Positions 8,338-42,050 of a stretch of 64,000 bases of DNA are shown in pieces (within the stretch, counting starts at the first letter, position 1; the number at the start of each line of letters is the position of its first letter). The position numbers were made by a program, and so were the translations under genes. The notes beneath the pieces are model-generated. The model ran no database searches. It was not told where the DNA came from and was given only the letters and a program-made list of their open reading frames with translations. Origin of the DNA: Tricharina praecox (Eukaryota); NCBI RefSeq assembly GCF_024521635.1, contig NW_026250428.1, forward strand, positions 186,001 to 250,000, given 5' to 3'.

Positions 8338-10291
8338 TGCTGGAGACATGGTGCTCTAGTCGGTTAGGAGACGCACACTAGATATATAACGGGCAAGGTA
8401 TGTGCACTCGTGTAGACTACCCTGGAAGTCTGCCTTGAGCCGTGAATCGTGATGTTGGACTAAAGTGCGGGAATCCACGGCTATGCACGGCGGGAGGGCC
8501 AGTTTTATTTCGTATTTGCACTGTGCACGACATCCCGTCGGTAAGATGTAGGTATGTGTTCACCGCTATCTTTCTCGGTACTAGCTAATTGTGATATGAG
8601 AGATCTTTACCCGTGAATTCACTGCGCCACTTATGTCTCGCTCAATACAGACCTATCACTCGTCGGGGCATCGAAAGTTCGTTCATGCTCGAGCCCAACT
8701 GTTCTAGATCCCCCCACGCGATTTTGCCATGGCGGAAGAGCAGCAGACGGGCATCTGCTGTCTATTGACTGTCATTCGCCACCGGCTCACAGGCTACAAC
8801 TGTTGGCTGTTGGACTCAAGCTTCAAGGATCCCACACACTCCATCTTCCAACCTTTTCTAGACAAATGTCCTGCTAACCGTTGACTGACATTGAACACTG
8901 ACAAACATTCCTGCCAGGGATCGATAACTACTCTACTGCATGCCGTTGACTACACTGCACCAACCGGCAAGGATTGATCGACCGACGACACAATATATCA
9001 TCCGCGGTTGAGGGGAAAGGGAAGTCACGCCCCGACCTTCCCATCTTCTGGCTGACTGACAGAATCCGGCAGGAAATGAAGCGGGGAGTCTTGTAACGGC
9101 AGACAGACGGGAGAAATCAGAGCTCATGGCGGGCAGCGACCGGATACCGTATGTAATCGTATTCGGCTTCCCCGCATTGAAGAAACCTGTTTTCTTTCCT
9201 TTTACAGATAGTGTTTTTCGCTCGACGGCCCGTTCCGTAGCGTGGAGAGTGCGAGCGAGCGTGTTTGTTTTCTCACAGCGTAGGATTTCCCTTTGCAAGG
9301 CAGCCACAACCACCACACGATCAAGTGCACGAGTTGTCCCACTGTTCTGCATAAAAAAGCTGCCCGTTGGCTCCGACGCCCGTGTTGGCCAACGCACCCA
9401 CGTTCATCATTGATGATGCAGATGCCCGATCGATTACTCCGCACACCGGTTTTAGGAGGTTATTATGCAGCTGAGCTACTTACTGGCCGAATAGCTGTCG
9501 TATCTGCTCGGCGACTTTGCCTCAAGCCATAGAGAAGCAAGAAAATGCGGTCCGTAAAATCCCACTGGCTGATTATAATTTCAGCTTGAATTCAGTGTTT
9601 TCCGGCACCACCTCCCGGCGCCCGCAGGCGGCGACGAATCCTCACGCCTCTTCCCCGCATGCCTCTACCCCGCACGCCCGCACGCCCGCACGCAGCGCGC
9701 ACGGACCGCAATACCGTGGTTCTCTCATGACCATATTCCTGCCGATACCTAGTATATATGTACATGTGCATGCGAGATGCGAGATAGAGGATCTGCTGGC
9801 CTCCCACTGGCTGGAGGCGTTCGGCATGCATCATGTCTCCGCACCCGGCGGCTGGCGTACATAATGCCTGGTGGCGACGAAAAAAAGAGACCACGTCCGA
9901 CAGAAAGACAGACAGACAATAAATCCGCCGCGAGAAAACCAGTTTTTTTCTCTCGAAGGTGGTGCATTCTAGGTATGTTGCGCTGCGGGGAAGTTCGACG
10001 TTTTACTTTTTCGATCGGTCGGTCGTGCTGATTTCTCTCCCGCCGGCCCGCTCCAGGACAGTTGACGATGCTTGGTTATCGTTATCGTTATCGCCTCAGT
10101 AATGTGCGCTGTCCTTCGCTTGCCCGTGCGGGGTAAATCCTCGAGGTTGTGTGTGGGCGCAACAGGTTTTCCTGTCGAAGCTGCAGAGTGCATGTCTCAG
10201 GATGCATGCGCATGTGCCGTTAGCTGCCTAAATATCAGTGAAACTGTCCGCTAGGACTCAACGAGGATCCCCAGGATCGAATGCGAAACAT

Positions 10292-10292
<1 letters not shown>

Positions 10293-10326
<34 letters not shown>
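10293..10326. repeat. (GT)n microsatellite
   Basis: Perfect GT run. Confidence 0.95.
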
Positions 10327-10327
<1 letters not shown>

Positions 10328-11199
10328 GACATTGAAGCCTGAAGCCTGACGCCTGAACAATACTGGCGACAACCCGTGGCGAGAATCCGCCGGCTTGCGG
10401 GGCTGGTGATTAGCTGTGACACATACCGTACGCATTGTCACGTCGAAACGTAATCCAGCAGGTGGGTGGGTATGTTCGCACGGTACTGAGACGCCGTTGG
10501 CAGTGTGGACGCAAAAAAAACGTGAAGTTTGAACAGACCATAGGCGTAACCTCGTTGGGATATTTTGAGATATTCCACGGGACTTCGAACTTGTCGGATC
10601 GAACATGAGGTGTTCTTTCACGGTCGATTACCCACCGTGTTGGGAAGTTGAAGGCGATTTACGCTTCCCAATCAGCATGCTCCGCGTCGGCCAACCTCCA
10701 TCTTCTTGTCCCGAGCTGCTTACTCAACCACCACCGTCTCCACACGGCTGGAGCAGCCGTTCACCATCGGGGTTCATCCAATTGTCTCGCCGACGGCATC
10801 GGGGATCATCCACATGTCTCGCCGATGGCATCGAGGGTGGGTACACTCACTGCTAGGTACACTTAGCAGTGGCGGTGGCAGAATGGGAACTCAACCTCAC
10901 GACTCTGATGTCAACCGTCGCCCTCCATTTGCAAGCGATGCGTGAGTGTTTTCTCGCAGGTGATGATTGGGAATCGAAATCGTAGAGGTACGCTGACTTT
11001 GCTGCCACCAACAGTCAGATCATGAAAACGCACTCGACGAATGTCCACCAATCCCCGTGTGAAGACTGAAGTTACCGTGCAGCAGGAATAGGACGAGGAA
11101 CAGCGGCGTGACGTGGCTGGAGACGTAGCTTTAGAGACCGGTGCTGGGCGCGAAGGGGAACGACGAGTGGAATGACGAGTAATTGCTTGGGTACCGTAT

Positions 11200-11510
11200 T
11201 TGATGACGTTGACGGCGTTGATGGCATTGATTCCGAGGACGAGGACTATAACGACGGGGAGGGACCGAGGATTGGGAAGACGAGTGATGGCGTTGATGGT
11301 ATTGATGATATTGACGGCGTTGATGGCGAGGACGAGAACCACGACGACGCGGAGGGAACGAGGAGTAGGAAGACGACTGATCGCTTGTGTACCTTAGCTG
11401 ATGTTATCGATGGTGTTGATGGTATTGATGCCGTCAATGATGGTATTGATGGTATTGACGGTGTTGATGATGGCATTGATGGCGACTCCGAGGACGGGGG
11501 CCAGGACGAC
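11200..11510 (+). repeat. Degenerate 9-bp GAYGGYRTT minisatellite in ~3 higher-order blocks (Asp/Gly-rich ORF 11172..11738)
   Basis: Repeated gatggtatt/gacggcgtt units, each block ending in gaggacgag...acgacg; coding status uncertain. Confidence 0.7.
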
Positions 11511-11735
11511 GGGAGGAGATGGGGGAGAGGGTATAAGGATGCTCAAAGGCGTATACAGTCTCGGTGGCCGTTCCGACGTGGGGAGACGGGAGAGGGGCCT
11601 GGGGGTGATGATTTATCAACTTTAGTCATGTGGATCAGAAATCATCAGAGGGCGGAACATACCTCGACGCCCATGACCTCCACGCCCACCGACCCTACTG
11701 ATGTAATCCTTGAAGTGGCAGCAAGACGGTTAAGA

Positions 11736-11964
11736 TGAAAGATGATGAAGAGGTTGAGGTTGCATTCGACTTCGAAGAGCCATCTAACATGGCTCTCCTC
11801 CGCCGCCAACCTACAACGTTCGGTGTCACTCGATCCGGCTAGGTAGTGCTGTGGAAATCCCCATTGGGATCCACCTATACGACTAGTTAGCCTCGCCCCC
11901 TCCTATCGTATCAGATCCCCCATCTACCCCACATGTGGTCCTCTCATGGGGATGGCAGACGACA
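11736..11964 (+). repeat. ~230-bp dispersed direct repeat, copy 2
   Basis: Diverged copy of 8110-8337. Confidence 0.85.
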
Positions 11965-12891
11965 CCCACACCCATGAACTACGGACGACGAACCCGCCTA
12001 CCAACACATTGTGTACCCATACCCACGCGGCCACGCCGTCCACCACTCTGGGATGGCGAAAGCTCGGCACCTTCGAGGCTTCGCCACGTGTGATTAGAAC
12101 TATGAACCAAGCTACTATAAATAGCGGCGTGCTGGACTGTTAGATTGGGCGGGGCGGGGCTGGGGTGGTACTCTCGGTACTCTACTCTACATGCTTCTAC
12201 TCTACCTGGCCCGGGGACCGACTCTGCTGACAGACAGAGTCCGCTGAGCAATGAGCATCGACAAGGGAAATGGTGATCAGTTATCTCAGGCTAAGTTGTA
12301 ACTAACGGTCATGGGAATCGGAATGGGAATCGGCCAAAGTAGGTGTATCCATGGATGCGGCCGGGCACCGTACAGATATCGCCGTCGTGGAAATATAAGG
12401 CGTGGAGATTTCCGTTGGTGCTGATGTAGTATGTACCGAGGCGCGTCACGATATTACAGATAGTCATGTTACATGTTATCATCAACCGTGGGATGAATAC
12501 TAGGAGGATCATCACTCGACAATCGCTGTATGAGGCTGCTATGGAGGGTACCATAGGATACCTAGGTTCTGCGGAACTTCGCCTTCTCCAAAAGTGATAC
12601 ATACATGAACCCGTTGGACACGACTTTCGAGGGCCACGACGCCACGTTGGTGCTTCGTTGTTTTCACATACCCTCCGAATAGTAAGCGCCTCCGAACTAC
12701 AGGAATCCCATTCGATTCTGTTCCCTATTAAAACTTAAAACAACAGTACTCCGTTCGCCTCCCCTCCAGGCCCTCTCTTCCGACCAGTGACCACCTTAAG
12801 ACTACAAGAAAGCCTTCCCTCCAATTCTTTTCCGTATCAAAAGAACAGTGGGTAAGTAAGTGATGCCGCCCGATCGTTACGTCACTTTCAT

Positions 12892-13848
12892 CTACCAAGG
12901 CCACGAAGCTGCCGCGGTATATGTACTAGAACCTCTTTCGCACATGCTATTCGCCAACTGAGCCAGCTCAGCCAAAACCTCCGAAAACGCCATTCTCTCC
13001 TGGAGATCCGAGATGCGATACTCTTTGCTAACTTCCATGCGCAGACCCTTCTCGGGTCCGACCAAACACCCCGCGCTAACCTGTCCGTTCGTTTCCAGCG
13101 CCTTGATCAGCGCCCCCGACACCGTTGCTTTGACGACCGCCCCGCTTCCCGCGCGCACTGTGACTAACCACACCGCAAACTCCTGCTGCGCATCGCGATC
13201 CATGAACTCCTGCGCCAGCGACACGGCGTACGCCGCCTCCTCGGCAAAGTCGGGGGAGCGGCGGCGCGGCACAACCAGCCACACACGAGACCCGATGAAC
13301 CCGCGCGGGTCCCACGTGACCGTTATCTCCTGGTATCGCAGCTTGAGCGGGAAGAGCGGCCAATCGTAGGAGGTACAGAAGTACCGCAGTACGTGCTCGA
13401 CCAGTTCGACGCAGGCGTAGCGGCGAGGCTCGACGTCGCGCGGACCGGGTGGGATCATCGTGAGGCGGTAGGAGGACTTGGCGATGTTCTGCAGTGCGTT
13501 CGTGTGGTGGATCGAGCGGAAGAGCTTGGAGAACGGCGATAGGGTGTTCAGTACCGCATCGATGAACGCGGGCTTCAATGCCGTCGAGCTGTCCAGGTGG
13601 AGATCGAAGGTCAACGTGGCGCCGATTGCGTCGAGGTGGTTCTTGTTCCAGCGGAAGGGCTCAATGCGGCAGGGACGTATCTGGCTTTGACCGGAGCTCG
13701 TCGGCTGAAACAGCGGACTTTTTGTGAACATCATGGCCTGTTGGGCAGGGACGAGAGAGTCTTCAGGGAGGCATGGTGACTTCTGCCTCTGCTCGCTGAC
13801 CGCGGAGTGTGGAGGTACGGAGCAGGTCGATGGAAGGATCGTCGCCAT
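12892..13848 (-). CDS. Hypothetical protein, ~318 aa, single exon
   Basis: Longest clean ORF in the region, with GC-rich third positions and globular-looking composition. Likely start is MATILPST at 13848; an upstream ATG at 13965 is possible. A TATA-like sequence lies upstream. Confidence 0.7.
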   Translation of the reverse strand: MATILPSTCSVPPHSAVSEQRQKSPCLPEDSLVPAQQAMMFTKSPLFQPTSSGQSQIRPCRIEPFRWNKNHLDAIGATLTFDLHLDSSTALKPAFIDAVLNTLSPFSKLFRSIHHTNALQNIAKSSYRLTMIPPGPRDVEPRRYACVELVEHVLRYFCTSYDWPLFPLKLRYQEITVTWDPRGFIGSRVWLVVPRRRSPDFAEEAAYAVSLAQEFMDRDAQQEFAVWLVTVRAGSGAVVKATVSGALIKALETNGQVSAGCLVGPEKGLRMEVSKEYRISDLQERMAFSEVLAELAQLANSMCERGSSTYTAAASWPW

Positions 13849-15249
13849 TGTGTGTGGATTGTGGTGAGAGGATACGAGAGAGTCATCGACATGAGCAAAT
13901 AGAAGCAAGAAAGGACGCCATTGAACGGGGTCAAAAGACGGAAACGGAATAGAATGAAACCGCATCCTCGATATAGCCTAGTGCGGGCGCTCGACGTAGA
14001 CCTTGGGCGTCAGAGTCTCCGGCTTCTTTGGGACCCCCATGAGCTCTATATATAACTCAGATTCGCCTCGTCGTCCGCTGAACGACGCGTCCGCTAAACG
14101 ACGCGTCCGCCTTCTCCAGCACTGGATACCTCGACATCACCCTGAACCTGCTTTCACTTTCTTTCCTACACGCGATGACGATGAGGCTGCCGCTCAGCTT
14201 CCCCATCCCGTGGCAATGGCGAACAGCATGGACGGTATCATTCGAAACCCAGGGAGGGGGGTGGGGGGACTCGGGAGGGGGGCACGCGGCCGAACCCTCC
14301 AGATTTCCCAACGTGCTGGCTTTCGATCACGGTTCCTATGCCACGGCACAACTGGCGATGATGGCTGAGAGGCTGGGACGCTTTAAGACATTGGACGAAG
14401 GACGGAGTTCTCACCACGATCATGAGGAACGTGCTACAGATCTGCTCAAGACGCCGCTCGTGGCACCACACTGTGCCGGAGCCTAAGCTGTATGAGGTCT
14501 GGTCAACTTGGTCTGGTACGGGGAAGATGACTTGGTATCAGACCTGAGACACCCGCGGCCGTCATCTCGAAGAACTCCGACCGTGACTAATGCTACGTAC
14601 AACACATATAGCGACCGGCTGTTTCTCCGAAATCGAGCTTCCCTGATAGTACTAGTAGTTCATATCGCCGTTCCATCTCCCTGATTTCTGGGCTTTTCTC
14701 CTTCGATTGTAGCCCACGATCATCGGTTTCTATTCTCGAAATCCGTCCCAACAATGCAACCTGTAAACACCCACAACACTCTCGCTCCCAGCCCAACGCT
14801 GCATCTGAAGGAAATTTACTGCTGGGGGTGCACCTAGACATTCAACTGGCCATATTTCACCGTGTGCCAACACAGTCAGTGCTCATACTGCCACAAGGCT
14901 TTGGTGAATTGGGATGGGAGGATGGTCGAGCTTTGAATGCAGACGTGGGTAGTTGATCTATTTGCTTCCCCGTCCTCAGGCCTCGCCGACATTAGGGGCT
15001 CGCTGTCATTTTCCTATGCCCTCCGCCTCGCCGGCTCGGTAGGCCTGTCGCAAATTTAAACAGTGCATTCAAGGAAATGGCTTGTCGCGCGTGCGCAAGT
15101 CGGGGCGTCTCCCCCTCTTAGTAGTTGCTACTTTTCTTCTCAAATCGGGCACCTCCTCATTTTTCCTCAACCACTCGCTCCACGCCCGAGTCCGCCGGTT
15201 CATTTCTCTTTTGTTTTTGTTTCGTCAATTGCTTGCGACGTACTACACG

Positions 15250-15830
15250 AGCGATGGTGTTTTCGGCTGCCAGCTTCGCCTATTCGTCAGCCTTTTTGTT
15301 TCCTAGGATGCGTTTATGGGGCAGGGCACCATAGATCTCGATAGCGATCTCAGGCTACCTCCATCGAAGTGTGGCGATGGATTCTGTAACCTCGATGGAC
15401 TCTTGGCTGGAGCAGGGTGCGTCTTGGGTCATCCTCCTAGTGGCAATTTGCACGTCGGTGCAGAAGGTGACTCTGTCGTGGGTGTACCGCCTATCGACGG
15501 CCGCTTCAGGCTACGCAGTCCGCTTCATAGGCCTCCCGGTAAAGTCCTACATCGACCTTGTATCCTTTCTATTGGGAGCCGACAGCTTTGTTGCCCGTCC
15601 GGGATCCATGCGTGTATATCGACAGTCCCGGGGATTGTGGGCTTTATGTGCGGGTTTAGTCGCGAACGCTTCGCCGATGGTGACCGTCGGACCGTGAAGT
15701 CGCATGCTTCTGATACATTCAAGAGCACCGTTTCTTCCGTCCGTCTCAGCTTCCCTAAGAGTGTGGCCGGTCGATAGCCAATCGCACTATCGGCTCCTAC
15801 CATCAGCTCATGTCTCTCTGAAATCCTGAC
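15250..15830 (-). mobile_element. Tad1-like LINE RNase H relic
   Basis: Across frameshifts: GLSIYTHGSR (cf. FTDGS), AYEADC (cf. AYDAE), VTFCTDVQIA (cf. IFTDAQAA), WCPA...GNKKADE*AKLAA (cf. WxPxH-GNExAD-AK). Confidence 0.7.
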
Positions 15831-16800
15831 CGGGCGCTTACTTCGTTCTAGTTGACGGCCGTTTTCTCAACAACCGCTGTCTATGTTGGTCCGTCTTCTA
15901 GGGTATTCATCACTCGGATTTTCTTCTCTCTTTGGTCCCCTCGTCCTCTGTCGTCTCCTCATAGGGTTGCCCGTGAGGCCTTAACGTTCTGTGCCGTGGA
16001 TGGTTTACAGAGTGATGGGAGAAATCAGACAGGGTACATTTTCCTGCGAGCTCTATTCGTCCGATTCTCGCGCCGTGTGTGATGTAAGGTTGAAGAGTTT
16101 GAGAATTCGGTTCGATTAGCGATAGTGGGCAATTAGCGACTGCGGGCGATTAGCGAGATCTAACGCACGTACTCTAGTCGCACCAAATCTGTGAAACCAT
16201 GCCAACCATGGCGGGATACGCCGTGCACCCATTCTCGCTGTTGCAATCCCTCCATGTAATGACTTTAATCGTGCGCGTTCTATATACCAAGGTAGTGAGT
16301 ACATCTAAGTAATTCATGATTGAAGAAGGAGAAACCCGCTGAGTTTTCTTGACGTGCAATGATCAATCTATACGGAACTCCAAATTTGATCGCTCTAAAA
16401 CCATCGAAAGCACACAGATATAGAGAAAAGAATGCACATGCAAGTTTGATTTCAAACATCTACCCAACGTAGCTCGCCCTCCCTTGAAATCATCCATCAT
16501 ACAAAAAAAAAGACCGACATAAACACAGCAAAGAAAGTAAAATGAAAGTAATCTGCAACTTCCGCCAACGCCATTTTATCCCACCTAGTCCCAGGATGCG
16601 ACTATGTGCTCCTGCCGTACGAACTCGTAACTCGTTGAACTCCATATCGGTGTGGGCGAGCTCGAGAGCTCTCACCGTGAGGGTGGCATCGTGGTGCGCC
16701 ACTTACCGGGCTCGGTCTCGGGCAAAATTAGCTAGTCGAGACCGCAACGAGGTCCGGATCCAAGGTAGCGAATGTCGCTGGAGGATGGCACCTTGGTGGG

Positions 16801-17241
16801 TATCTGCGGGATCTCCGTATCTCTATCCTGCACAAGGATGGACATGAAGATAATGGCTTTGTCTGGTTGCCGAAACGGTAAGAGAACTCTATGACTGGCC
16901 GCGGGAGAATGCACTGTATCATCGAATTGAAGACCTTGGGCTGGTCTGGAACGATCATTGAGAGGAGCACTTCATTGCCTTCTCCCAACCGGGCACGCCC
17001 GGCGACGAACCGCAGGCGGTCGAAGTCCATGTTGGCCCCCGAGAGGATGGCGCAGAGGGAGGAGGTCGGAGTGGACGGCTGATGCTCAGCGGCGTATTTC
17101 TTGAGACCAGCAAGGGTCAGGGCGCCGGTAGGCTCGACGATGGATCGGGTGTCTGTATATACCATCAGAGCCGAGCCCCGAGAGAGAGACGGAGGGTGGC
17201 GGCTCACCTAGGAACACATCTTTGATTGCCGCACAGGTCTC
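16801..17241 (-). pseudogene. ILV1: Threonine dehydratase (ILV1/IlvA) internal fragment with retained intron
   Basis: ETCAAIKDVFL|DTRSIVEPTGALTLAGLKKY...ILSGANMDFDRLRFVAGRARLGEGNEVLL...IEFSYR. Intron 17207-17153 (GTGAGC...CAG) splices in frame; frameshift near 16860. Confidence 0.9.
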
Positions 17242-17474
17242 TACTGCGCGATCTTCACTACCTTGGAGGCCAGGGCCTCGAGCTCGAGAGCTCTCTCCTA
17301 GATGGTGGCACCGTGATGCGCCTCTTACCGGGCCCCTTCTCGGGCAAGCTTATCAGGCCGAGAACGAAACTAGGCCCGGATCCAAGGTAGCGAATTTCGC
17401 TGGAGGGTGGCACCGTGGTGCGTCTCTGCTGCGCGTTATCCGCTACCTTGGATGCCAGTCCTCGGGCTCGAGAG

Positions 17475-17656
17475 CTCGTTCGAAGCGTAGGCCTTTCCGG
17501 TGGAGGCCTTGTACCAGTCGAGGATGCGGCTAACTAAGGATGAGATCAGGAAGGCGCCACCCTCGGCGGCGGCGATGGCCTGCACCTGAGAGAACATCAG
17601 GGTGAGGCTGTAGTTGATACCGTGCTTGCTCTGGAGCTCATGGGCGGCCTGGATGC
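17475..17656 (-). pseudogene. TAL1: Transaldolase internal fragment (~60 codons)
   Basis: [56 protein letters not shown] matches the transaldolase region NLTLLFS...ISPFVGRILDWYK, with substitutions at conserved positions. Confidence 0.9.
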
Positions 17657-17929
17657 ACCGTGGCGCGCCTCTTGGATGTCGTTGGTGATCTTCATAAGCG
17701 AGCAATGAGCGCAGACCATAGTGAAGGCCTCGCACTGTGTCGGGTTGAACTTACCGAGCATGAGCGAGGAACTGGTTGCATTTTCAGGCGGGCTGAGTTC
17801 GTCACGATGGAGTGGAGATTGTAGTAGTTGAAAGGTGGAGTGAAGAGTGTAGTGAATGAAAGGTGAAGTGGAGGTTGTGACGGACGAGGTTCGCTGTATT
17901 TATTGGTAGTTACGTTACGCAAGTGCTTC

Positions 17930-18067
17930 GCTTAATCGTTCGAAGTAGGGCTTAATCGTTCAAAATCGCGCAAGAGCTCAGCTTAATCGTTCGAAGTCGG
18001 GCAAAAGCTAGCTTAATCGTTCCAAGTAGGGCGAGAGCGTAGCTTATGCGTTCGAAATCGCCCAACA
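17930..18067. repeat. Five-copy degenerate tandem array with core GCTTAATCGTTC (20-31 bp spacing)
   Basis: Cores near 17930, 17950, 17981, 18011 and a degenerate copy near 18041; upstream (minus strand) of AATAAATA and a CT-rich leader. Confidence 0.85.
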
Positions 18068-18069
18068 CG

Positions 18070-18520
18070 CCTGGGCTCCTTCGGGCTTCCTAGTCTGCGG
18101 AAGATTGAGCCTCTTATCTGAGACTCTGAGTATCTCCCAGCACCATTGCTGGTATGGCGACGTAAGTGGGTGCGAGCCGCTGGATAATACGGCCAGTACC
18201 TCTCCGTACGGATCATTATGGCGACTTCGGTAACAGGGGTCGTCGGCTTTACGTTCATCTATTGCGCTGTACTGGCCGGTAAGGCTCTATATATGCCATC
18301 TGGAGACTGGAGTCAACGACCCTCGAGTAGCGTTCTACATAGACCAGTCCCGATCAAATTTGGGTATGGTCGGCCGACCGGTCTGGTCTATGTAGAACAC
18401 TGCCCTCGAGTGGCTTGCTTTGCCACCAGATGCCATTAATCTGCCTCCAGATATTACTGCCACCTTTCCAGTATCCTCGGAAGCAACTTCTATCATTGTA
18501 GTCACAATGCCGCGCAAGCA
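18070..18520 (-). mobile_element. Possible Copia integrase relic
   Basis: DQTGRPTIPKF... and TEVAIMIRTERYWPY...THLRR...IFRRLG weakly echo Copia integrase blocks; heavily degraded. Confidence 0.3.
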
Positions 18521-19120
18521 ATCTCACAGTAGACCGTCTTTCACTGCTATGCGGCTTGCAATCAGTAGAGATCCTGGATTGAAGACGGCGGATTCCATCC
18601 AACACTAGGAGATCATGGTTCTGTGAAAGGCTTCGAAACATGCGGGTTTTCCTCAAGAATACTAGGATTTTGTGGGACTATAGTCGACTGAATCCTATAC
18701 GTAGTGGTTCCATCGAACGATACCTAAATTTGAGATCTTCTAGACGGTGAAGAATATGTGATGGTAAACCGATGTCTTGATGTGAGTTAGTAGGAGAGAA
18801 GACTAAGTATCTCGAGAGATTAAAGAAAAAAGTGTAAAGGCGCCTGCCTTCAAAGACAAAACAGGAATGCGTCGGCGTGTTGGAAGGTGTGGCGAATCAC
18901 CTTAATACCAGCACTATACTGAGGTGTCGGTAGTCAGTGGCGGCGCCGGCAGAAATCGTCGGCAGGAGTCGTTGGCAGGATATAAGAGTCGGTAGATAGC
19001 CCTCAATGAAAGAGCAACTCTCATACAAAACATCATACGTTCGAGTGAAACTATTTCCCGTGCCTTTCAACACGGCGCAGTAACATAATCACATTATTTA
19101 AGTACAAAACCGCTCATCTA

Positions 19121-19959
19121 CTATAACCAATCTTCTGGCGTACATGATACATCCGTTGTCTGCGCATCGGAGCGCAATCCATTATCCGCACGCCACCACG
19201 CCTCAATAGCTTCCTTCTCTTCTCTGTCTTTGAGAAACCTCAAAATCTCTAGATAGCAGTCAGCGCTGGAACAAATCGAGGAGTTCGAGTAGTAGACTGG
19301 CGTTGCACATACCAATCTTGAAATCCACCAGCAAGGCGCCGTGGTTGAGGACCCGTTATCTACAGGTACGCAAGGTAGCTCAATCCATCACTCGTCCACC
19401 GCGTCACAGTAGGTTCGTCCAGTAGTCTTTCTGCGACAAAGCTCACCACCTCTGGATAGTAGTTAGCGCTGGACAAACATGAAGACCACGAACGTTAGAC
19501 ACGGGTTGCACATACGTTCCGTGAGGTGAACCACCAAGAATTAATGGATAAAGACGTTCCATAAATCCTCGCCGGTTTGTTTTGACCTCGGGAACGTGAT
19601 TAGTAACATATCTCGGGAGACGGGGCTAGCTGGGTTATACTACATACCGCGGGCCCTGGGGATATTGATCATGGCCTGCTTCAGTTGCCTGTACACGTTA
19701 TCGAAGAAGTCGCGTTCGCACTCTGCCCTCGCATTGACTAATATCCTGCAGTTACCGAAGGGCTCGGCGCAATAGAGCCACTGGGTAGGCTGCAGCACGT
19801 ACCTCGACGCTCTAACGCAAGAATGTAGCGAAGGACAATTTCGGGGAGGCGTTCGATGACGTTAGGCAGCAGGGCCGGTTCGTTAGTATGCCGTAGGTAC
19901 AGCGCGTCAAGTTCGGTGCGCATCCCCTCCGATATGTAGAAGTTCTGTGGGTCTAGCAT
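19121..19959 (-). pseudogene. Disrupted hypothetical gene with an internally duplicated Cys/Trp motif
   Basis: MLDPQNFYISEG... start after a TATA-like sequence and CT-rich leader; WWFTSRNVCATRV*RSWSSCLSSANYYPEVVSF duplicates WWISRLVCATPVYYSNSSICSSADCYLEILRF; stops and frameshifts. Confidence 0.4.
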
Positions 19960-20211
19960 GTTGTCAGCGTTGGGGGGTATAAAGTCGGAAATTTGAACAG
20001 AAAAATATGAGGGAGGTGAGTGATAGATGCGGTCGGAATGGGGAACTGAGAAGAGCGGGGGAAAAGGCCGGGTTTTTATATGATCCATTCGTGCCCCCGG
20101 ATTACGGTCATAATTAAGTTACAGCACAGGTACGAATAAGCTTTTTTGACACTGTTGAAGTCTAAATAAATTTATTTTTGGCACTGTTGAAGTCTACATA
20201 GAGTGTACATA

Positions 20212-21595
20212 CCATATTGAGCCGTATAGCAAAGTCAAATGCATTATAGCAGCCATATTTGAGGTCGATTTTGACACTAGAGTTTTGGGGGAAAAATACT
20301 AATATTAATATTTTTTCCCCAAAAATCTTGTCATAAAATAAGGCTTAGTCAGGGTTTTCAAATTTCAGCTCTGATTGTTGAATATGGCTTCCTCAATCCT
20401 GAGTGCAGTGAAAATCAGCCCCGACTCGTAAGTCTTCTGTAACCACTACGGGCCCGCCGGCCTTGGAAGTTCGTAAGAGTTCTATATGGGCTCATTCCTG
20501 AATACTAAGCAGCACATAATGACTTCTTATGCGACAAGCCTTATCTCATACAATGCTTATCACTTGTTGATGCTCTTCTTTCGTAACCTTATATACCTAA
20601 AGTTTAAACTACTCTCCTTCCCCGCTTCCCAGTCCCTCGCCACCATTCCCATACTGACTCCCGCTCGCCATAGTACTGTATCCCCCTACTACTCCTCGTT
20701 GTGGAAAACTTGCGGGCATCGAGGGAGTAAGTGGAGGAAGTGATGCAGGAGCTAGGTATCAGCGAGACGACGAAGTGATGGAGGACCTAGGAGGACATGT
20801 CAGCGAGAGGGGAAAGTGATGGGGAGTTGTGGCGAGAGAAGGAGCTATTAGAAAGATGAGGAGGAGTTGTTAGAAAGATGAGGAGGAGTTGTTAGAAAGA
20901 TGAAGAGGACGGGCCGTGGGTTCGCGGGTTTAAAACTTCAAAATAAGCTTCATCATATTTGTCTTCAGAAAACTCTGCGCCTAACAATATGTTAGGACAT
21001 ATCTGGCGGGGTTAATACTGTCGGAGCTGCCTCTCTCTCCCTCTCATCATCATCTACAGAGTACCTAGACGGTCAACCTCCCATCTCCGCTCCCTCCTCT
21101 CAACCCGCCGCCGCTTCTCTCAAGCTGGCTGATTTTCGCGTATGCTCTACTAATTCATAAGAGGGATAAGACCCATCGGTCTGAATAAGGCTCACTGAAG
21201 GCTTGTATGATGCATGTAAGGAGGTTGAGCGTGTGGTGCTCTAAGGATTTTCTGTCTCGAACTGATATATCCCATAATGCTTCACAAAACCTGCCAGTTT
21301 CACAATCATTATTGTACGGCAGTGCTGTGCATTTAAACAATGACGATATAGGACTGACTAAAGCTATGAGGTTTACAAAGTGAGAAGGCCGATTTATGTG
21401 ATGGTGGTTTTCGCTGCATAGGCATTATGTAGGAGTTACGACAATTTTAGGGAAATGAGAACATCAGCCTTAGTTGAACACAGCCCTTACTGAGGCCTCA
21501 TGAGCTCAACTCGCTTGTGGCTGGCTTATACGAGGACTGTTTGCCTATTCAAGCCCTACATAAGGCTAACGACTTTTGTACACGGCTCAATATGG
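20212..21595. mobile_element. Non-autonomous TIR DNA transposon (Tc1/mariner-type ends), copy 1, ~1.4 kb
   Basis: TA|CCATATTGAGCCGT ... ACGGCTCAATATGG|TA; interior homologous in inverted orientation to 34892-37241; no transposase ORF. Confidence 0.9.
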
Positions 21596-22892
21596 TAGGT
21601 ATCATCCACCAAAAATAAAATTACGATCCGCCCGGAGGTAACTCTAATCATACGGAAATCTTAATGAGCCGCAGATGTCACGATCCAGGAAGCCAGTTTC
21701 CCGCCATCTATACAGCGAACCCCAACGGTACTACGTGGAAACACGAATGATTCTGGAAATGCAAGCAAAGTCCTCCAGCCATTGGAAGGATTGTTTGGGA
21801 ACATGGGAAGACTTACACTGCTGGTGAGATGCACACAGTTGGCTTGGTTCAATCGATTTCTCCGCCACCGCCCTTCACAGACAATTACCTACGTTACGGC
21901 ACAGATACGAACATGCTTTTTCTGACACTGATGAAGTCTAAATAGTAACCTAAGGGCGAACCCCAGATCTGCCAAGCAACCGCGAAGACGCAACTGCTGC
22001 ACGGCAAGAAGCGAACTGTCGAGCACACTTAAGAGTGGCATGTGAGCCAGCCTTGAAGAGAGAGAACGAAAGAATACCGCAGAATCATGGTTAGAATCAG
22101 AGAATGCGAGTAAAGTTTCAATAAACTTTTGCGTACCCTGCTACAGTATTTGTATATGGATCAATATGTGTACGGTAACGGAGTATCCCGGGACCCAACC
22201 CGCTGGCACCACCACACAAGCCCCCCCCCCCCCCCCCCCCCCATCATGTAAGGTAGGCGCTGCATACATACTAATGCACACCGCTCTTGAGAAATTTCCT
22301 ATCTAGGTATATCCGGCGGACTTTGAAACCCTCACTTAATTGGTCCGTTAGCTTGGGCGGATGTCAAGGGATGTCCAGGGATTCCTTTACGCCATAGCAT
22401 AGTTCATACCAGAAGCGAGCTCCGTAGCGTGGTAGTTTTTCGCGCAACATCACCGACAGGATCGAGCTCGGAGGGCGGTTATGGAGCTGTCACGACGTGT
22501 TTCTGGGTTCAACGGTAGTATATACAGTGACCAGCGGCAGAGGTGAAGACTCAACAGTCCCGATAAACGTAACGAGCGGCGTATTGGATAGTTGCACGTA
22601 ACGATACTCAGAATTTGTCGTTTCTGCTCGCATGAATATTCCTGCTTCCATTACGATACTAGTAAAGCCCCTTCGGCAAATCAAAACGCCGGCGACCACC
22701 CACAAAGCAAACCGAAAGTACAATACCCAGCAGCAAATATGTAAGAAAACGAATACGAAGCATTGCCCTGCCCTGCCCTGCCCAGACCCAACCGATGTCA
22801 TCTGACCGATTACCATTCATGATTCATCTGATTCCCACCACTAGAACAAAGCAATACAGACTAAAGAAAAACCATGAGCACACTCACTCCAC

Positions 22893-24096
22893 CTATTCTT
22901 CTATCTCCTCATCCTTGCACCACCCGCACATACAGTGCCCCTCTGGACACGACTCCTCATCTTCCCGGGTTTCGCTCCACTCCCCGGCTTCGTCGCTCAT
23001 CGGCGGGCTTTCCTGCACCTCCTCCGCCTGCTCGAGCAACCTCAGGTTGGCGGCGGTGAGGGCATCCCTCGATCCGCGTTGGTTCGGCGTGCGCACATCA
23101 TGCGATTCCATGTCGTTCCTCTCGCTCACGGGCGAGTCTTCTCCGGAAGCACGGGACATGTATCCTTCGGGGGTGCGGAAAAACCGGAAGGAAGGATCGC
23201 GAGCGGAGATTGTAACGCGGCTCCACGCCTTCCTGTAGACAGTGTTTGCGCGTTTGCGCGGGCGCAGTGGGATGTCGGCGATCCCAATCAAGTCGAATAT
23301 CGGCTCCTTGGCGATGTCCTGGAAGTTGCGCAAGATGAGCTCCTCGCTGGCGGTCGACGGGACTGCACTCGGCGCGACTCGGTACTCGTAGATGTACGCG
23401 GCCATATTCGCGAACTGAGTGCAGTACAGCGAACTGGCGGCCGAGTCGAAGATCCTGTCAAGATCTATCTCGCGGTTCAGGACCCGGAATACGTCTTTCG
23501 CCACGGACATGTCGAAGCCGTCGAAGAAATCCGTTCTCAGTTCCACGCTCGTTAATCCAATGAAGGCGTCGGGCTCGTGCGCACATATTTCCTCCACCTA
23601 CCATCCATTTGTCTTCAGTAGTCAAAACAATGATCGCCGAAACACTCACATGGTGGGTGAGGCGGGTGAGCACATCGCACTGCCACTGGCGGTTCCATGC
23701 CATTACCTTTTCGACCCCGATGTGGTAGGCCAACGCGCCAGCCGGCTCGGTCACCCCGTGACCCAACGCCCTCGTCAAGATACCCCTGATTGTGTCTTCG
23801 TTGGCGAAACCGAAGTGTCTGGCCCAATGGAACTTGCTGAGCAGGTTCAGCCACTCCCAATCGGAGGCCGAAAATCCCGCCAGATCATTATCATCCTCCT
23901 CCTCATCATCATCATCCTCATCCTCCTTATCCTCATCCTCTCCAATCCCAGCCTCCCCGCTATCCTCGCCGGCAGTCCGAGGGCCAGCAGGCCGCCGAGT
24001 GCTCCCCTTGAACGCCCCCTCAATCATTCTGTGCGCTTCCTGCGCAGTCGCGCCAGCGGGAATGATAAGTTTTCTTAGCAGATAGGCAGTCGACAT
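22893..24096 (-). CDS. Hypothetical protein, ~383 aa, 2 exons (24096-23650, 23597-22893)
   Basis: A 52-bp phase-0 intron GTGAGT...TAG joins ORFs 23458..24096 and 22893..23597 in frame; acidic tract; C-terminal CPEGHCMCGWC. Confidence 0.75.
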
Positions 24097-26654
24097 CTCG
24101 ATCTTCGCTGTGGTGGTTCTCGCTGAGGTAGTGCTTTCATCGTGTCGATGTATGTCGGCAGGGTGCGCAGAGTTGGAAGCGGGGTGAGGGATGAGGGGTG
24201 ATGGGTGAGGGACCTCGCCGCCACCGCCTGTCCATAGGGCTGCACATCCCGTTCGGGATCACCGTGCAGTAATAGCGACCTTCCACTCGAGTGATGGCGG
24301 CCGGAACAAAAACATTTCTCGTAGAACCCGAAGGTTCGGCTGTGTACGTGGGTAGGATAGAGTTGCAATATTGCATTCGAAATGAGGGAGGTAATTGAAA
24401 GGTGTCAGCAGACATTTATTGGGGTGCTTCAAGCCTTTTATATGTGCGGCGAACATCTCTCAACACGCGCCATCCCGCGCCATCACTCGTATCAGCTGGG
24501 TCGAATCAGCTAAGACCCAGCTGTCGAGCTCGACGAAGGGACTCCAGCCGTACGCGGCGATGATATCGCAACGGAATTGCATACGAGACATACATATAGC
24601 ACCAGCTACCACTTGAGTTCTGACACAAGCGTGTGCACTCTCCAAACAACGGACAACTTTAATATCATTCTTGATCACTCGGAATTTCATGGACTGGCGC
24701 AAGTTCATAGGCGCAACCCACCATCAGCCATCAGCCACCGCAGCTTCCTGTGGCCAAGTACAAAAACGAGATATGGGATGATCATTCGGTAGTGGCCAGT
24801 GGCCACCATACCCGGCTTCTCTTCCGACGCGAAAGTTCACGGGCAGACCCGAATGGCCTGGGTCTTCATACAAGCCACAGTAGCTGATAGGAAAGAAGGC
24901 CAGCTGCCAGCGTATCTTCCACGATGTGGGCAGATAATGACAATTATTTCGAGATCTAATTCGTCCCGTGTGGATAAGGAGCGAGGAATCAAACGGCCCG
25001 CAAGGGCTGCGAAACTTCGATGGTCTGTCATCACTTCATGGCTCATGTTGTAATCTCAATCCATAATCGTCTCACGTTGGTAAAGACTTCTCACTCCTCC
25101 GTTTATCTAGTATGTGTGGATTGATCACTCGTTTACTTGCTTGTTGTGTACGGACATTGGTTTCTTGCTTGGCGTTACGGTAATTTCATATCGTGAGCTT
25201 CAGGCTTTCAGCCACTTGTTCGGACAGTCGAATATCTTCATATTTTTATCGTAACTGAATACTAGGGTGGTTATGTGGTTTAATTGACACGTGTACCATG
25301 CCAAAAGCCCGCGCTTGGGCTCATGGTCGAATACACAGAATATCACTCGGCTTATAGCCACATTCCCGTGTTGTAAATCGTGAAGGATAGAGTGGTAAAC
25401 AGATATACTGATACGTAAAAAGAGAATACCGAGAGACCTGTGGGGGTAAGGAGGTAGAGGTAGAGGCCTGTTTATCCTGTGTACCATGACTAAGTATCGA
25501 GTGATATATTACACCCCGAGCCGAACGGCTGTCCCTAACCACTCGCTGCCTCTCATCCGAAGGTTGTCGTGCAACGGCAATGCACTATTATTGCGTCTCG
25601 GCCTTCGGGTTCAGCGGGAACCCTACATTTAAGTAGGAGAAGTTTCACACTGGACGCCGCGATCCGAAACTGTAGGGTGAGCACACAGCAGAACGCGTGG
25701 ACAAACGCATAGGCAAACACTCATGCAAGCACTGAGACAAATGAATATACAAACGCATAGGTAGACAAATGCATAGACAAACGCTTCGCGGTCATTTGAC
25801 ATACATATTCCTCCTCTACACAAACGCCGTCACTGACACTACCGTCCCCAAACTGCGTCCTCAAACGTAACTACCCTGAGTATGCATACCGCCCCTGGTA
25901 GGTACGCTGTTTTCCGGAGGTACCTGGCCGACTTGCGCAAGAACGCGCCGGCAGCTGTTGCTTTCCGCCATCCGAGACGTCGGTGGTCACGTTGGCAGGT
26001 TTCCCCTTCGCAAACGCCGTCACCGTTGTAGTGATAAAAGCCTCGTTTGATTTCACCTCCAATCCTACGGATGGGTCGTTGGTAGGGCCGACAGGTTTCA
26101 GTGTTGGCTTTCTCCGGGCTGCCTTCTCTTCCGTTCGGTTGCCTCTAGAACTTACCGGACGAGCCAAAACGTCGATCGATTAGAGACCCATCTTCCTTCC
26201 TCACGGTGTCCTCATATCCAGTTTCCAGCGTCGACTCGTCACCGAGAGATGGATATTCGCCGACACGACACAGTACGGTATTTCCCGTCGAGTTACAAAC
26301 GCTCCAACGCGTGCGGACCCCGGGTCTCCGCTTCCGTTCCGCCCACACCACTAGCGACAGGAAATCTGAAACCACGGCGCGACAGGACGGACGTTTGCAC
26401 GACTCCGCACGGGATCATACGCAGGCCTCTCGTACATATGGATACCTGCACCCAGCGCTAGTGTGCTCAGTGCTCAGTGCATACGAACGGGCAGATGACT
26501 TTGGCAGATGACTCTCGCGGATGACTAGCAGATGACTCTAGAAGACGACTGGCCGACGACTCTGGCAGGTGACTGACAGTTGGCACCACAATCACCGTCA
26601 CACACTGCCGAAACATACTTCCGGCTCGAGCTAGCAGATGGAAGTCCCCGTTCA

Positions 26655-26820
26655 TACTCATCTTGCGTACATATTCAATTCGATTCTCACTCGATTCTAG
26701 TTCTTACTCAATTCGTGTTCGTAGTCAATTCTCGTTCATACCCTATTTCCGTTCGTATCAGCTCGATTCCCGTTCATACCCAATTTCCGTTCGTATCAAC
26801 TCGATTCCCGTTCTTACTCC
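26655..26820. repeat. Degenerate ~37-bp tandem repeat
   Basis: ttccgttcgtatcarctcgattcccgttcwtacyc twice near-perfect, plus decayed copies upstream. Confidence 0.7.
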
Positions 26821-27073
26821 AGGTTCAGTCTAGAGGATCACTACAGTGAAGTTTGAATGTAACGATCTTCCGCCGGGTTGAATGGTTCAAGAAATGTCAT
26901 GATTAGCCGAGAACAACCAACGAACCATCGTGCAGCGATTCCGCAGATCCCAAATCCCACCGGTCCCGTTGGCAACTTCCATGCATGTCTCCACCACGCA
27001 TGCATATTCTGGCCCCGCATATTCTGCCCCCGCATTTCGCAGCGGACGATAATCCTCCGGCGACTGGTAGATA

Positions 27074-41414: not shown

Positions 41415-42050
41415 ATGAAAGCCCTCCTCTCCCTCCCCGTCCTTCTCATTGGGCTATGCAGCTTCGTCCTCTGCACCCCCACGCCACTATCCCCGCGCGC
41501 CGCTGCCGACACCGTCGCTCCCGTAGCCTCCCTCTCGAAACTCACCTTCGGCGGCCCCGGCTGCCCCCAGACCGGCGGCGAACCATGGGTCTACGGCACA
41601 CCCACGCAGAACCTCACGATCGTATTCGCGAGCAGCGCGTTCCAGGCGTCGATCTCGGGGGACACGACTACGCAGCGCACGTACTGCCAGATCAACCTAG
41701 CGATCACGCATGCGGCGGGGACGCAGTACGCGGTCGACCGCGAGCACTTCGGCGGCCTCGCGAATCTTGAGGAGGGGGTGCGCGGAAGGCATAGGATCTC
41801 TTACTACTTCTCCGGAGAGCTCGAGACGGTCGCTAGTGAGGTCGAGTTCGGGGGGCCGCTGCAGAGGGAGTACGAGCTTGATGAACAGGTGGAGGAGCTG
41901 TGGTCGTCGTGCGGACAGGGCGCGGGGCTGAATGTTAACTCGGAGGTTTATGTCACTAGCAATGGGGTGAAGGGCAAGAGGGGTATCATGACGGGCGACT
42001 TTGGTGGGAACGCGCTGTTTGAGCTGCATTTGAAGTGGAGGGCCTGTTGA
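41415..42050 (+). CDS. Secreted protein, DUF4360-like, 211 aa
   Basis: Signal peptide MKALLSLPVLLIGLCSFVLC; GGPGCPQ, RTYCQINL, YYFSG, WSSCG...LNVNS and terminal LKWRAC motifs; TATAAA at ~41315. Confidence 0.88.
   Translation: MKALLSLPVLLIGLCSFVLCTPTPLSPRAAADTVAPVASLSKLTFGGPGCPQTGGEPWVYGTPTQNLTIVFASSAFQASISGDTTTQRTYCQINLAITHAAGTQYAVDREHFGGLANLEEGVRGRHRISYYFSGELETVASEVEFGGPLQREYELDEQVEELWSSCGQGAGLNVNSEVYVTSNGVKGKRGIMTGDFGGNALFELHLKWRAC

Follow-up and report, generated by a model that had tools for sequence, protein, structure and literature searches.

A mosaic of fumarase, transaldolase and threonine dehydratase gene pieces in Tricharina praecox that may have arisen by template switching or patch repair

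On the minus strand of the window, by which we mean the whole 64-kb stretch of Tricharina praecox DNA that was analysed, positions 17800-16657 hold a 1.1-kb mosaic of short, co-oriented copies of the fumarase, transaldolase and threonine dehydratase genes. The donors are three unlinked housekeeping genes, FUM1, TAL1 and ILV1, and all six pieces (four of FUM1, one of TAL1 and one of ILV1) lie on this strand. The fumarase pieces overlap within about 55 codons around the active-site loop and are accompanied in each unit by a 21-nt inverted copy, and the other two donors contribute 60 codons of transaldolase and 129 codons of threonine dehydratase with one intron. The sequence-only reading from which this work started had placed the transaldolase and threonine dehydratase pieces within an array of repeated units, and they do lie between repeat units of ~185 nt. 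It had missed the third donor, fumarase, and had let the locus begin at 17781 instead of ~17800. From the 5’ end of the minus strand onwards, the features are:

17708..17800, minus strand: FUM1 piece (i), 31 residues; Pfam Lyase_1, E 8e-6; NCBIfam fumC_II, 4.4e-9, profile positions 304-336; tblastn with bacterial FumC, E 1.4e-7
17675..17704, minus strand: FUM1 piece (ii), 10 residues; secondary phmmer domains against PDB fumarases (CSLMKIANDI in human FH)
17655..17673, minus strand: first copy of the D3 motif, AAGAGGCGCGCCACGGTGC; 17/19 match to the unit, score 28 against a best of 23 in 200 shuffles
17475..17654, minus strand: TAL1 piece, residues 141-200 of 324, 60 codons; Pfam TAL_FSA, E 2.5e-12; tblastn
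17294..17477, minus strand: repeat unit 1, 184-185 nt
17433..17453, minus strand: inverted 21-nt copy of the fumarase codons (E)IRYLGS; partner arm 17400-17380
17404-17327, minus strand: FUM1 piece of unit 1, 26 residues; NCBIfam, tblastn and PDB
17237..17293, minus strand: first 57 nt of unit 2, ending at GCAGTAGAGAC; repeat comparison
16801..17241, minus strand: ILV1 piece, residues 293-421 of P0001, 129 codons; tblastn
16672..16807, minus strand: rest of unit 2, with a degenerate D3, FUM1 at 16782-16705 and D3 at 16704-16681
16782-16705, minus strand: FUM1 piece of unit 2, 25 residues; tblastn E 1.2e-6, 73% to bacterial FumC
16657..16671, minus strand: first 15 nt of a third unit (GAGCTCTCGAGCTCG), with unrelated 3’ flank beyond

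For piece (i), all 28 PDB matches at E<=1 are fumarases (best 4.1e-8). This piece spans the GSSxMPxKxN signature of fumarases, here decayed (G to S and P to L). When bacterial FumC was searched against the whole 64-kb window by tblastn, the three best matches fell exactly on the 5’ piece and on the two units, with no further significant match. Among 18950 NCBIfam models, TIGR00979 is the top match of the 5’ ORF (4.4e-9, with three weaker families behind it) and the sole match of units A (0.029) and B (0.013), each of these two being individually weak; the matches of all three fall at adjoining profile positions, 289-336. The repeat unit derives from a class II fumarase. The pieces overlap and their native order is broken, running through residues 234-264, then ~211-221, and then 218-243 twice. 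Piece (ii) directly follows piece (i) here and lies ~25 residues upstream of it in native fumarase, an order that reads as a back-jump of the kind found at a tandem-duplication junction. A fumarase C-terminus was also sought in the 3’ flank (16671-16490), where the two frames tried gave 0 PDB matches at E<=10 and no NCBIfam match turned up, so that the idea was dropped.

The two units align over 151 nt (17429-17279 against 16807-16657) at 83% identity, with a period of 184-185 nt. Unit 1 consists, in order, of the GAGCTCTCGAG palindrome, the inverted arm (17453-17433), a D3 motif (17428-17405), the FUM1 piece and a further D3 (17326-17303). Its arms at 17453-17433 and 17400-17380 form a hairpin stem of 16 bp, the fold of which reaches z-scores of -3.9 and -3.4, and the corresponding arms of unit 2 (17267-17248 and 16778-16759) enclose the ILV1 insert. 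The locus had been taken for a repeat-protein pseudogene, an idea that had to be given up: the 25 differences between the units in 151 nt (8 of them transitions) are without codon periodicity (6/8/11 by position), copy B has stop codons in every frame, ~78 of each 185 nt are fumarase, and a repeat-protein signal is absent from the units. For the remaining ~100 nt per unit, comprising the D3 motifs and the GAGCTCTCGAG palindrome, descent from the fumarase codons that follow GK found no support, as the DNA alignment to the 5’ fumarase piece was not significant (18 of 300 shuffles scored equally). When the 91-aa ORF of the unit was compared with 1.84 billion representative sequences, two matches were returned, a T/S-rich bacterial surface-repeat protein and a low-complexity ORF, both of which were judged compositional. 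An Rfam scan of 15500-19000 at E<=1 gave no match on the units, and its only score was miRNA-like, on the hairpin of a neighbouring MITE; the unit is therefore not a known structured RNA. No other copy of the unit was found within the window, and a 20-mer of the unit had 0 matches in JGI metagenome contigs.

The TAL1 piece begins directly after the first D3 copy and is 88% identical to its best match, P0121, one of the 324-aa transaldolases. Four of 25 invariant columns are altered in it (N156S, P179S, F180L and G182S). The metagenome relatives of the best transaldolase protein, 80 loci of which the best is 78% identical, are too distant to supply the parental junction bases. For ILV1 the parent is closer at hand: the piece shares 117 of 128 aligned residues with P0001, a resident 556-aa protein of Tricharina praecox (91%), followed by P0002 at 80%, and named species reach at most 77% (Trichophaea hybrida 77%, Geopyxis carbonaria 74%). 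With the species’ own gene as its nearest match, copying took place within this lineage. Among 61 columns conserved at >=90%, the piece departs from the consensus at 6, one of which (Q328) also departs in P0001; for real homologues the median number of such departures is 0 and the largest is 5. One frameshift lies near 16868. A 151-nt contig of soil metagenome run X1 is identical to the fragment at 138 of 150 positions (92%), and its non-synonymous differences encode Met, Thr and Val, the residues of P0001, at three positions where the fragment has Ile. The resident ILV1 thus persists elsewhere, and the piece is a copy and not a moved gene. Its GT..AG intron of 55 nt (17207-17153) is retained, as had been proposed, and it stands at the parental position; the description of it as ‘in-frame’ fails on its length, which is not a multiple of three. 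The further claim that the template must have been DNA or unspliced RNA is supported by this retained intron.

Read on the minus strand, the uninterrupted unit is CACGGTGCCACCATCTAGGAGAGAGCTCTCGAG and the second uninterrupted junction is GCAGCAGAGACGCACCACGGTGCCACC. The TAL1 piece enters at CACGGTG followed by CATCCAGG and leaves at GAG followed by CTCTCGAG; the ILV1 piece enters after GCAGTAGAGAC and leaves at GCAGATAC followed by CCACCAAGGTGCCATCC. All of these strings, as quoted before this analysis, are present in the sequence. With lengths that are deduced from the parental protein codons and from a sister unit itself 17% diverged, TAL1 overlaps its host by 2 nt at the entry (GC) and 3 nt at the exit (GAG), with 14 nt of host sequence lost. 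At ILV1, no host sequence is missing on either side. On the left the insert departs from the host at ...CAGAGAC, overlapping the ILV1 codons GAG-ACC (Glu293-Thr294), and the overlap GAGAC follows because Glu-Thr must be encoded by GAR-ACN; on the right, GCAGATAC agrees with the host GCAGAGAC at 7 of 8 positions. Neither poly(A) or poly(T) at the fragment ends nor flanking direct repeats were present in the sequence. The view that fragments of two unrelated housekeeping genes, mutually in sense, had been inserted here holds, and the junctions are compatible with short microhomology.

The structure could in principle be a chimeric contig, given that assemblers can be misled by repeats and conserved gene fragments. 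However, all four TAL1 and ILV1 junctions are bridged by contigs of two separate soil runs, X1 (0 differences) and X2 (~1-2% diverged), and the left ILV1 junction also by record 24 of X3 and record 29 of X4. For X1, records 3 (16928-18119) and 1 (15800-16837) carry 0 differences, bearing in mind that X1-X4 are short-read contigs of one study and that X1 may share its source with the assembly; records 12 and 10 of X2 carry 7 and 18. We therefore consider an assembly artefact next to impossible.

These contigs also bear on the annotation. NCBI lists a model at the locus, "hypothetical protein BZA05DRAFT_421318 [Tricharina praecox]", of 208 aa, and this protein (P0160) matches the window with 100% identity across 141 aa. 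Together with the GT-AG introns that can be drawn, and a structure that is kept in at least two haplotypes, the model might suggest a chimeric gene, young and functional, that arose through exon shuffling, or else a locus that supplies regulatory small RNAs directed at FUM1, TAL1 and ILV1. Its details, however, speak for neither. Fumarase piece (i) holds both the annotated ATG (17781) and, at its GK codons GGTAAG, the first splice donor of the model, but the ATG is out of frame, so that exon 1 consists of out-of-frame fumarase codons, and the model ends in 42 residues that join frameshifted ILV1 to unit sequence. In the X2 haplotype a CAG codon of the TAL exon has become TAG (17633 G>A), a premature stop, and conserved transaldolase residues are lost. 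Furthermore, the last exon of the model differs in X2 at 9 of 261 nt (4 of them non-synonymous) and is thus more variable than the adjacent non-coding flank (8 of 556 nt). A second, homologous chimera was not found among the 564 matches of the protein search, and of the 120 matches listed, full coverage of the query (100%) was reached by the query alone. On these findings P0160 does not behave as a selected open frame, and the annotated protein is a product of the gene finder stitched over patches, not a conserved gene; a function for the chimera or for small RNAs from it strikes us as very improbable.

The surroundings are gene-poor with relics of transposable elements: in a Pfam survey of the 146 window ORFs of at least 110 aa, 6 had any match, including a copia gag and a Tc3-type HTH. 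Short tandem motifs occur on both flanks (17899-18065 and ~16120-16170), and a high-copy hairpin MITE lies 530 bp from the locus. A 13-nt match between 16380-16392 and the interior of this MITE was judged to be chance.

Could the mosaic then have been carried by an old gene-capturing transposon of the Helitron/Helentron or Pack-MULE/hAT kind, non-autonomous and by now reduced to a single copy, which picked up the fragments as it moved and of which D3 and the palindromes would be remnants? Co-oriented fragments of several genes, with introns, are the classic look of Helitron cargo, and here fragments of several unlinked genes indeed lie in one orientation with an intron kept, between tandem motifs and in a neighbourhood of element relics and a MITE. 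Helitrons are otherwise recognised by a 5’ TC, a 3’ hairpin with CTRR termini, insertion at A|T and a RepHel partner. No helicase/Rep domain of this kind was present among the 146 window ORFs (Pfam). Neither terminal inverted repeats nor a clear target-site duplication were found, the best result of comparing flank with flank by blastn-short being a 13-nt match with E 0.06, and a repeat search over 9000-27000 returned no long inverted-repeat pair that encloses the locus. The units stand at a depth of 9.2 in X1 and ~5 in X2, the same as their flanks, compared with up to 357 for the nearby MITE; at >=90% identity, a threshold that more diverged copies would escape, units and flanks are at the depth of neighbouring single-copy sequence in all four runs that cover them. 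With no second copy in the window either, the earlier suggestion of a Pack-type mobile element finds no support. Moreover, the fragments are tiny, overlapping and re-ordered copies from one gene with two others added, which polymerase hopping fits better than capture of flanking DNA. Gene-capturing Helitrons have been described from fungi (PMC4289320), but we regard capture by a transposon as an unlikely origin for this locus.

The same sense orientation of every donor piece could also point to RNA as the template, with a reverse transcriptase or an RNA-templated repair polymerase jumping among FUM1, TAL1 and unspliced ILV1 transcripts and the chimeric cDNA sealing a break. FUM1, TAL1 and ILV1 are housekeeping genes with high expression. 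A fungus is also known in which template jumps have produced chimeric retro-pseudogenes of several parts (PMC2104539). Against this stand the retained ILV1 intron, the lack of poly(A), of any LINE or SINE part and of flanking direct repeats, and the 21-nt inverted copies, which arise more easily from a fold-back of DNA. An RNA-templated origin is accordingly one that we consider quite improbable.

On balance we favour, by a modest degree, the reading of 17800-16657 as a non-functional mosaic made by microhomology-mediated template switching or patch repair, probably in more than one event, with palindromes that keep the site fragile. In replicative or synthesis-dependent break repair, whether by MMBIR/FoSTeS-like template switching or by ‘patching’ during SDSA, a free 3’ end would repeatedly anneal to ectopic templates at microhomologies of 2-8 nt, copy 30-440 nt and switch back. 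The fumarase-derived part would have come first, and inverted and tandem duplications would have turned it into a 185-nt unit with hairpins. The palindromes would then have rendered the site prone to breakage, and renewed patching may have placed TAL1 beside a D3 motif and ILV1 within the loop of the 16-bp hairpin. Copies that are discontinuous, overlapping, inverted and re-ordered are indeed present, in the form of the fumarase pieces and the 21-nt inverted copies.

As to the number of events, the fumarase pieces look more decayed than those of TAL1 and ILV1, a comparison made over short stretches and, for fumarase, with a bacterial reference. Over 150 nt, 8% of positions separate the ILV1 fragment from its parent, and the two units are 17% apart. 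The unequal decay of the pieces would speak for several events over a single one. Foreign pieces seem to have entered the locus on more than one occasion, and the notion of a recurrent acceptor survives to that extent. A single orientation for all pieces is not what random patching predicts (~6% chance for five independent pieces), and it fits Helitron-type capture or RNA templates too.

A bolder and rather doubtful extension is that the locus is a self-perpetuating ‘scar’, in which the palindromes of the fumarase patch keep breaking and the breaks are sealed by copying single-stranded templates that arise during transcription of highly expressed genes, either R-loop strands or pre-mRNAs. Such templates would explain why pieces from three unlinked donors share one transcriptional polarity. 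If this is true, the locus would be a natural, small-scale site of exon shuffling in a fungus, making new chimeric ORFs and transcripts with sequence from genes of central metabolism, and like scars may lie throughout the genome of Tricharina praecox.

Multi-donor templated insertions are known for the most part from repair mutants of yeast, from cancers and from CNV junctions in humans; on the favoured reading, this locus adds a case from a filamentous fungus that is naturally fixed and shared in the population. Repair debris would here have become an annotated ‘hypothetical protein’ with a transaldolase Pfam domain, which calls for caution in annotation and in counts of orphan or de novo genes. 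Furthermore, testable hints on the template and site preference of such repair come from the shared polarity of all donors and from a single palindromic array of 400 bp having been hit repeatedly.

Among the described systems, repair-mediated duplications, or ‘filler DNA’ (Pace et al. 2009, PMC2671141), are a close parallel: as set out there, genomic copies of 50-600 bp, exons included, are placed at a break with 2-9 nt of microhomology, deletions of 1-15 nt or short duplications and no poly(A), the donor being retained. The present locus likewise has copied genomic pieces, no poly(A) and, for ILV1, a donor that persists; its junctions are compatible with short microhomology, and their types appear to match these hallmarks. 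In contrast, the confident cases given in PMC2671141 are single pieces with donors less than 5 kb away, whereas here six or more pieces from no fewer than three unlinked donors are crowded into 1.1 kb of a fungal genome. MMBIR/FoSTeS, as modelled by Hastings, Ira and Lupski (2009, PMC2621351), involves 2-5 bp of junction microhomology, synthesis of low processivity and multiple template switches. Its products are discontinuous duplications among which inverted duplications and triplications are interspersed, and in the features outlined in PMC2621351 the discontinuous, duplicated and inverted pattern of that model is the one that the fumarase pieces show. Unlike the kilobases to megabases of that account, the pieces here measure tens to hundreds of bases and their donors are not nearby, and their unequal decay would suggest several events instead of one. 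Helitron or Pack-MULE capture likewise yields co-oriented, unrelated host-gene fragments with introns, and chimeric ORFs annotated as genes; unlike such captures, the locus yielded no element termini, target-site signature or other copies, nor an autonomous partner in the window, and it holds overlapping pieces of a single donor in altered order. Finally, the LINE-mediated bi- and tripartite chimeric retro-pseudogenes of Magnaporthe grisea (Gogvadze et al. 2007, PMC2104539) offer a fungal comparison. In the tripartite chimera described there, the WEIRD non-coding RNA, Mg-SINE and the MGL LINE are joined between 14-bp direct repeats. Both there and here, different cellular sequences are fused head to tail in one orientation at a fungal locus, with switches at specific sites, but the mosaic of Tricharina praecox has no retroelement part and no direct repeats, and it retains an intron.

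The mosaic occupies 1.1 kb of the minus strand (about 17800-16657), in which ~2.3 copies of a 184-185-nt unit lie around and between fragments of a transaldolase (TAL) and a threonine dehydratase (ILV1) gene. All junction strings quoted in the sequence-only reading occur as written in the minus-strand sequence. Searches with TAL and ILV1 proteins found no further piece of either in the window, and the host itself is a third captured gene, that of class II fumarase (FUM1/fumC). The pieces and unit copies, all on the minus strand, are:

17800-17708: 5' fumarase piece (match to the bacterial fumC L081, E 1.4e-7)
17654-17475: TAL piece, found by tblastn with transaldolases from the protein search; residues 141-200 of 324-aa enzymes
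17429-17279 and 16807-16657: the two long unit copies, 83% identical, gapless
17404-17327: fumarase piece of unit 1 (L081, E 0.003, 54% identity)
17241-16801: ILV1 piece; residues 293-421 of P0001, the T. praecox enzyme
16782-16705: fumarase piece of unit 2 (L081, E 1.2e-6, 73% identity)

The L081 matches are an independent check, run against the whole window, in which nothing beyond these three was significant. Among 34 small ORFs of the locus, the sole Pfam family match is Lyase_1 in ORF 17597-17899 (E 8e-6). Against PDB sequences this 5' ORF retrieves 28 chains at E<=1, 28/28 of them fumarases (best 4.1e-8); a 32-residue stretch aligns with the active-site loop, and the next 10 residues with a segment that the native enzyme has ~25 residues further upstream. 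The peptides of unit 1 (26 residues) and unit 2 (25 residues) likewise have fumarases as best PDB matches, and of 18950 models only NCBIfam fumC_II matches them (E 0.029 and 0.013), with the units at profile positions 289-315 and the adjoining 5' piece at 304-336 (E 4.4e-9). The remaining ~100 nt of each unit hold the 'D3' motif AAGAGGCGCAYCACGGTGCCACC, present twice, and the palindrome GAGCTCTCGAG. In each unit, the upstream arm of a 21-nt inverted repeat is the reverse complement of the (E)IRYLGS codons, an inverted mini-copy of the fumarase gene. The host had been taken for a repeat-protein gene, which does not hold: the 25 positions that differ between units spread 6/8/11 over codon positions (8/25 are transitions), copy B (unit 2) has stop codons in all frames, and the units match fumarase.

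The presence of TAL1 and ILV1 fragments is confirmed for both. ORF 17436-17750 matches Pfam TAL_FSA (E 2.5e-12); the TAL piece is 88% identical to its best match P0121, the best available transaldolase, from which 7/60 residues differ, and 4/25 columns invariant among 92 homologues are altered (N156S, P179S, F180L, G182S). The ILV1 piece shares 117/128 aligned residues with P0001, a 556-aa threonine dehydratase family protein (Pfam PF00291 and PF00585) that NCBI names as Tricharina praecox. It holds a 55-nt GT..AG intron (17207-17153), exactly between codons contiguous in P0001, and a single frameshift near 16868. Of 61 columns with >=90% conservation, six are off consensus (including Q328, common to P0001), whereas real homologues have at most 5 (median 0). 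A 151-nt contig of soil metagenome run X1 (16808-16957) is identical to the fragment at 138/150 positions and has an additional C after 16868; it is the resident ILV1, because its non-synonymous differences restore the Met, Thr and Val of P0001 where the fragment has Ile, Ile, Ile. Since the fragment is nearest to its own species' enzyme among all found (91%; P0002 follows at 80%, and named species reach at most 77%: Trichophaea hybrida 77%, Geopyxis carbonaria 74%), it was copied within the T. praecox lineage.

X1 contigs span every mosaic junction with 0 differences; X1-X4 are short-read contigs from one study, and X1 is perhaps not independent of the assembly. Contigs of X2, a diverged haplotype, also span every junction (7 differences and 1 gap in 940 nt; 18 differences and 2 gaps in 815 nt), and those of X3 and X4 span the ILV1-left junction. 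Unit depth equals flank depth (9.2 in X1, about 5 in X2), so the units are single copy at >=90% identity. Depth at the mosaic needs caution over 16928-17115, where the ILV1 fragment is most conserved (…LSGANMDFDRLRFV…): contigs of many other organisms in the soil runs are drawn there, with summed depth up to 115, and short-read contigs break as a result. No other unit copy lies within the 64-kb window, and a 20-mer of the unit had no match in the metagenome contigs.

An annotated model crosses the mosaic: P0160, 'hypothetical protein BZA05DRAFT_421318 [Tricharina praecox]', with 208 aa. Over 141 residues its identity with the window is 100%, and further exons match the TAL piece and unit 1, which places the window in this cup fungus (Pezizomycetes). 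The parts of P0160 are:

9 residues, from the ATG at 17781
45 residues, TAL piece
14 residues, unit 1
99 residues, second ILV1 exon
42-residue tail of frameshifted ILV1 and unit sequence

P0160 is not a working gene, because its ATG lies inside the fumarase piece out of frame, conserved residues are lost, the X2 haplotype carries a stop in the TAL exon (17633 G>A, CAG to TAG), the last exon is variable (9 differences in 261 nt, 4 non-synonymous, versus 8 in 556 nt of adjoining flank), and no second chimera was found: 564 proteins match P0160, and among the 120 matches listed only P0160 covers both parts. Its first splice donor is a fumarase Gly-Lys codon pair. X2 also has a 2-nt deletion at 16603. 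The main practical lesson is that this annotated 'gene' is probably repair debris.

The surrounding window is gene-poor, with a Pfam match in only 6/146 stop-to-stop ORFs >=110 aa (1-64000):

2406-2822: copia-type gag remnant
41235-42047: DUF4360
44783-45271: Tc3/mariner-type HTH
57112-57834: DUF7524, weak match
59399-61300: fungal transcription factor, two ORFs

Within 18320-18410 lies a hairpin element (18333-18402) of 70-75 nt, whose terminal inverted repeats measure 16-20 nt (…GTTCTACATAGACCAG / CTGGTCTATGTAGAAC…), with an 8-bp direct repeat CTCGAGGG on both sides; it looks like a hAT-type miniature element. Its summed depth in soil metagenome contigs is 357 versus about 8 for its neighbours; it sits between many different flanks there, and variants with a longer interior occur. 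The only Rfam signal is a miRNA-like score below threshold (28.9 bits, gathering 65). Four to five copies of a GCTTAATCGTTCGAAGT-like unit (period about 30) stand upstream of the mosaic at 17899-18065, and three of a TCGCTAATCG-like unit (period about 17) downstream at about 16120-16170. These motifs share the core CGATTA(A)GC in opposite orientation, have single-copy depth, and may represent either binding-site arrays or subterminal repeats left by an old element. A minisatellite at 11192-11495 (9-nt period, TGATGGYRT-type, 12 copies in three blocks) lies within ORFs of both strands, its plus-strand reading giving D/G/V/I-rich repeats (…DGVDGIDS…). The segment at 20-22 kb is richer in A+T (GC 0.45) and contains a pair of 42-nt inverted repeats (20206-20247 / 21560-21601), 79% complementary and 1.3 kb apart, as well as a 27-nt motif that recurs at 20142, 20174 and 21918; region 20142-21944 is possibly another non-autonomous element.

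How, then, was the mosaic assembled? The ILV1 insertion leaves the host sequence intact on either side: the uninterrupted unit reads ...GCAGCAGAGAC|GCACCACGG, and the copy with the insert ...GCAGTAGAGAC|CTGTGC...(ILV1)...CCGCAGATAC|CCACCAAGG. At the entry, GAGAC overlaps codons Glu293-Thr294, necessarily GAR-ACN; at the exit, the last bases GCAGATAC (Pro-Gln-Ile) match host GCAGAGAC at 7/8 positions. The insert sits within the 32-nt loop of a 16-bp hairpin. Such junctions would be expected of a nascent strand that exits and, guided by microhomology, re-enters the same template. In the case of TAL, host sequence continues up to CACGGTGC, at which GC overlaps the codon for the Gly preceding Ile141, and resumes at GAGCTC, where GAG overlaps Glu200, with 14 host nt lost. 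Capture at microhomology junctions, as had been proposed, is right in part: the ILV1 and TAL ends show putative overlaps, deduced from protein-constrained codons and from a sister unit that has itself diverged rather than from parental DNA.

Microhomology-mediated template switching or patch repair would account most economically for the mosaic, probably over two or more episodes, at a site that its own palindromes would render fragile. All six pieces (four of fumarase, the 10-residue segment among them, one of TAL and one of ILV1) are co-oriented, which is without explanation under random patching, and therefore two rivals stay alive. An old Helitron-like or Pack-type carrier would account for the shared orientation; termini, copies and a partner were looked for in the window (copies also at >=90% identity in the metagenome contigs) and none were found, nor were TIRs or clear direct repeats flanking the block, leaving the transposon alternative of the sequence-only reading unsupported. 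Synthesis from RNA templates, which the co-orientation would also fit, is disfavoured by the intron retained in the ILV1 piece and by the lack of poly(A), a retroelement part or flanking repeats (compare PMC2104539); no insert end carries an A or T tract. The boldest reading, of low probability, is that the shared orientation reflects templates that were transcription-associated single strands. The fumarase scaffold may, on weak indications, be older than the patches, since its pieces are 54-73% identical to bacterial FumC in one of the enzyme's most conserved stretches and the two units are 17% diverged from each other, against 7/60 differing residues for TAL and 91% identity for ILV1.

Fumarase as third donor extends the original observation, and the features of this part fit the hallmarks of the MMBIR model (PMC2621351). 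The junctions, together with the lack of A or T tracts, TIRs and clear direct repeats, resemble the tabulated hallmarks of repair-mediated duplications (PMC2671141). The mosaic would be a further instance of a repair outcome already known.
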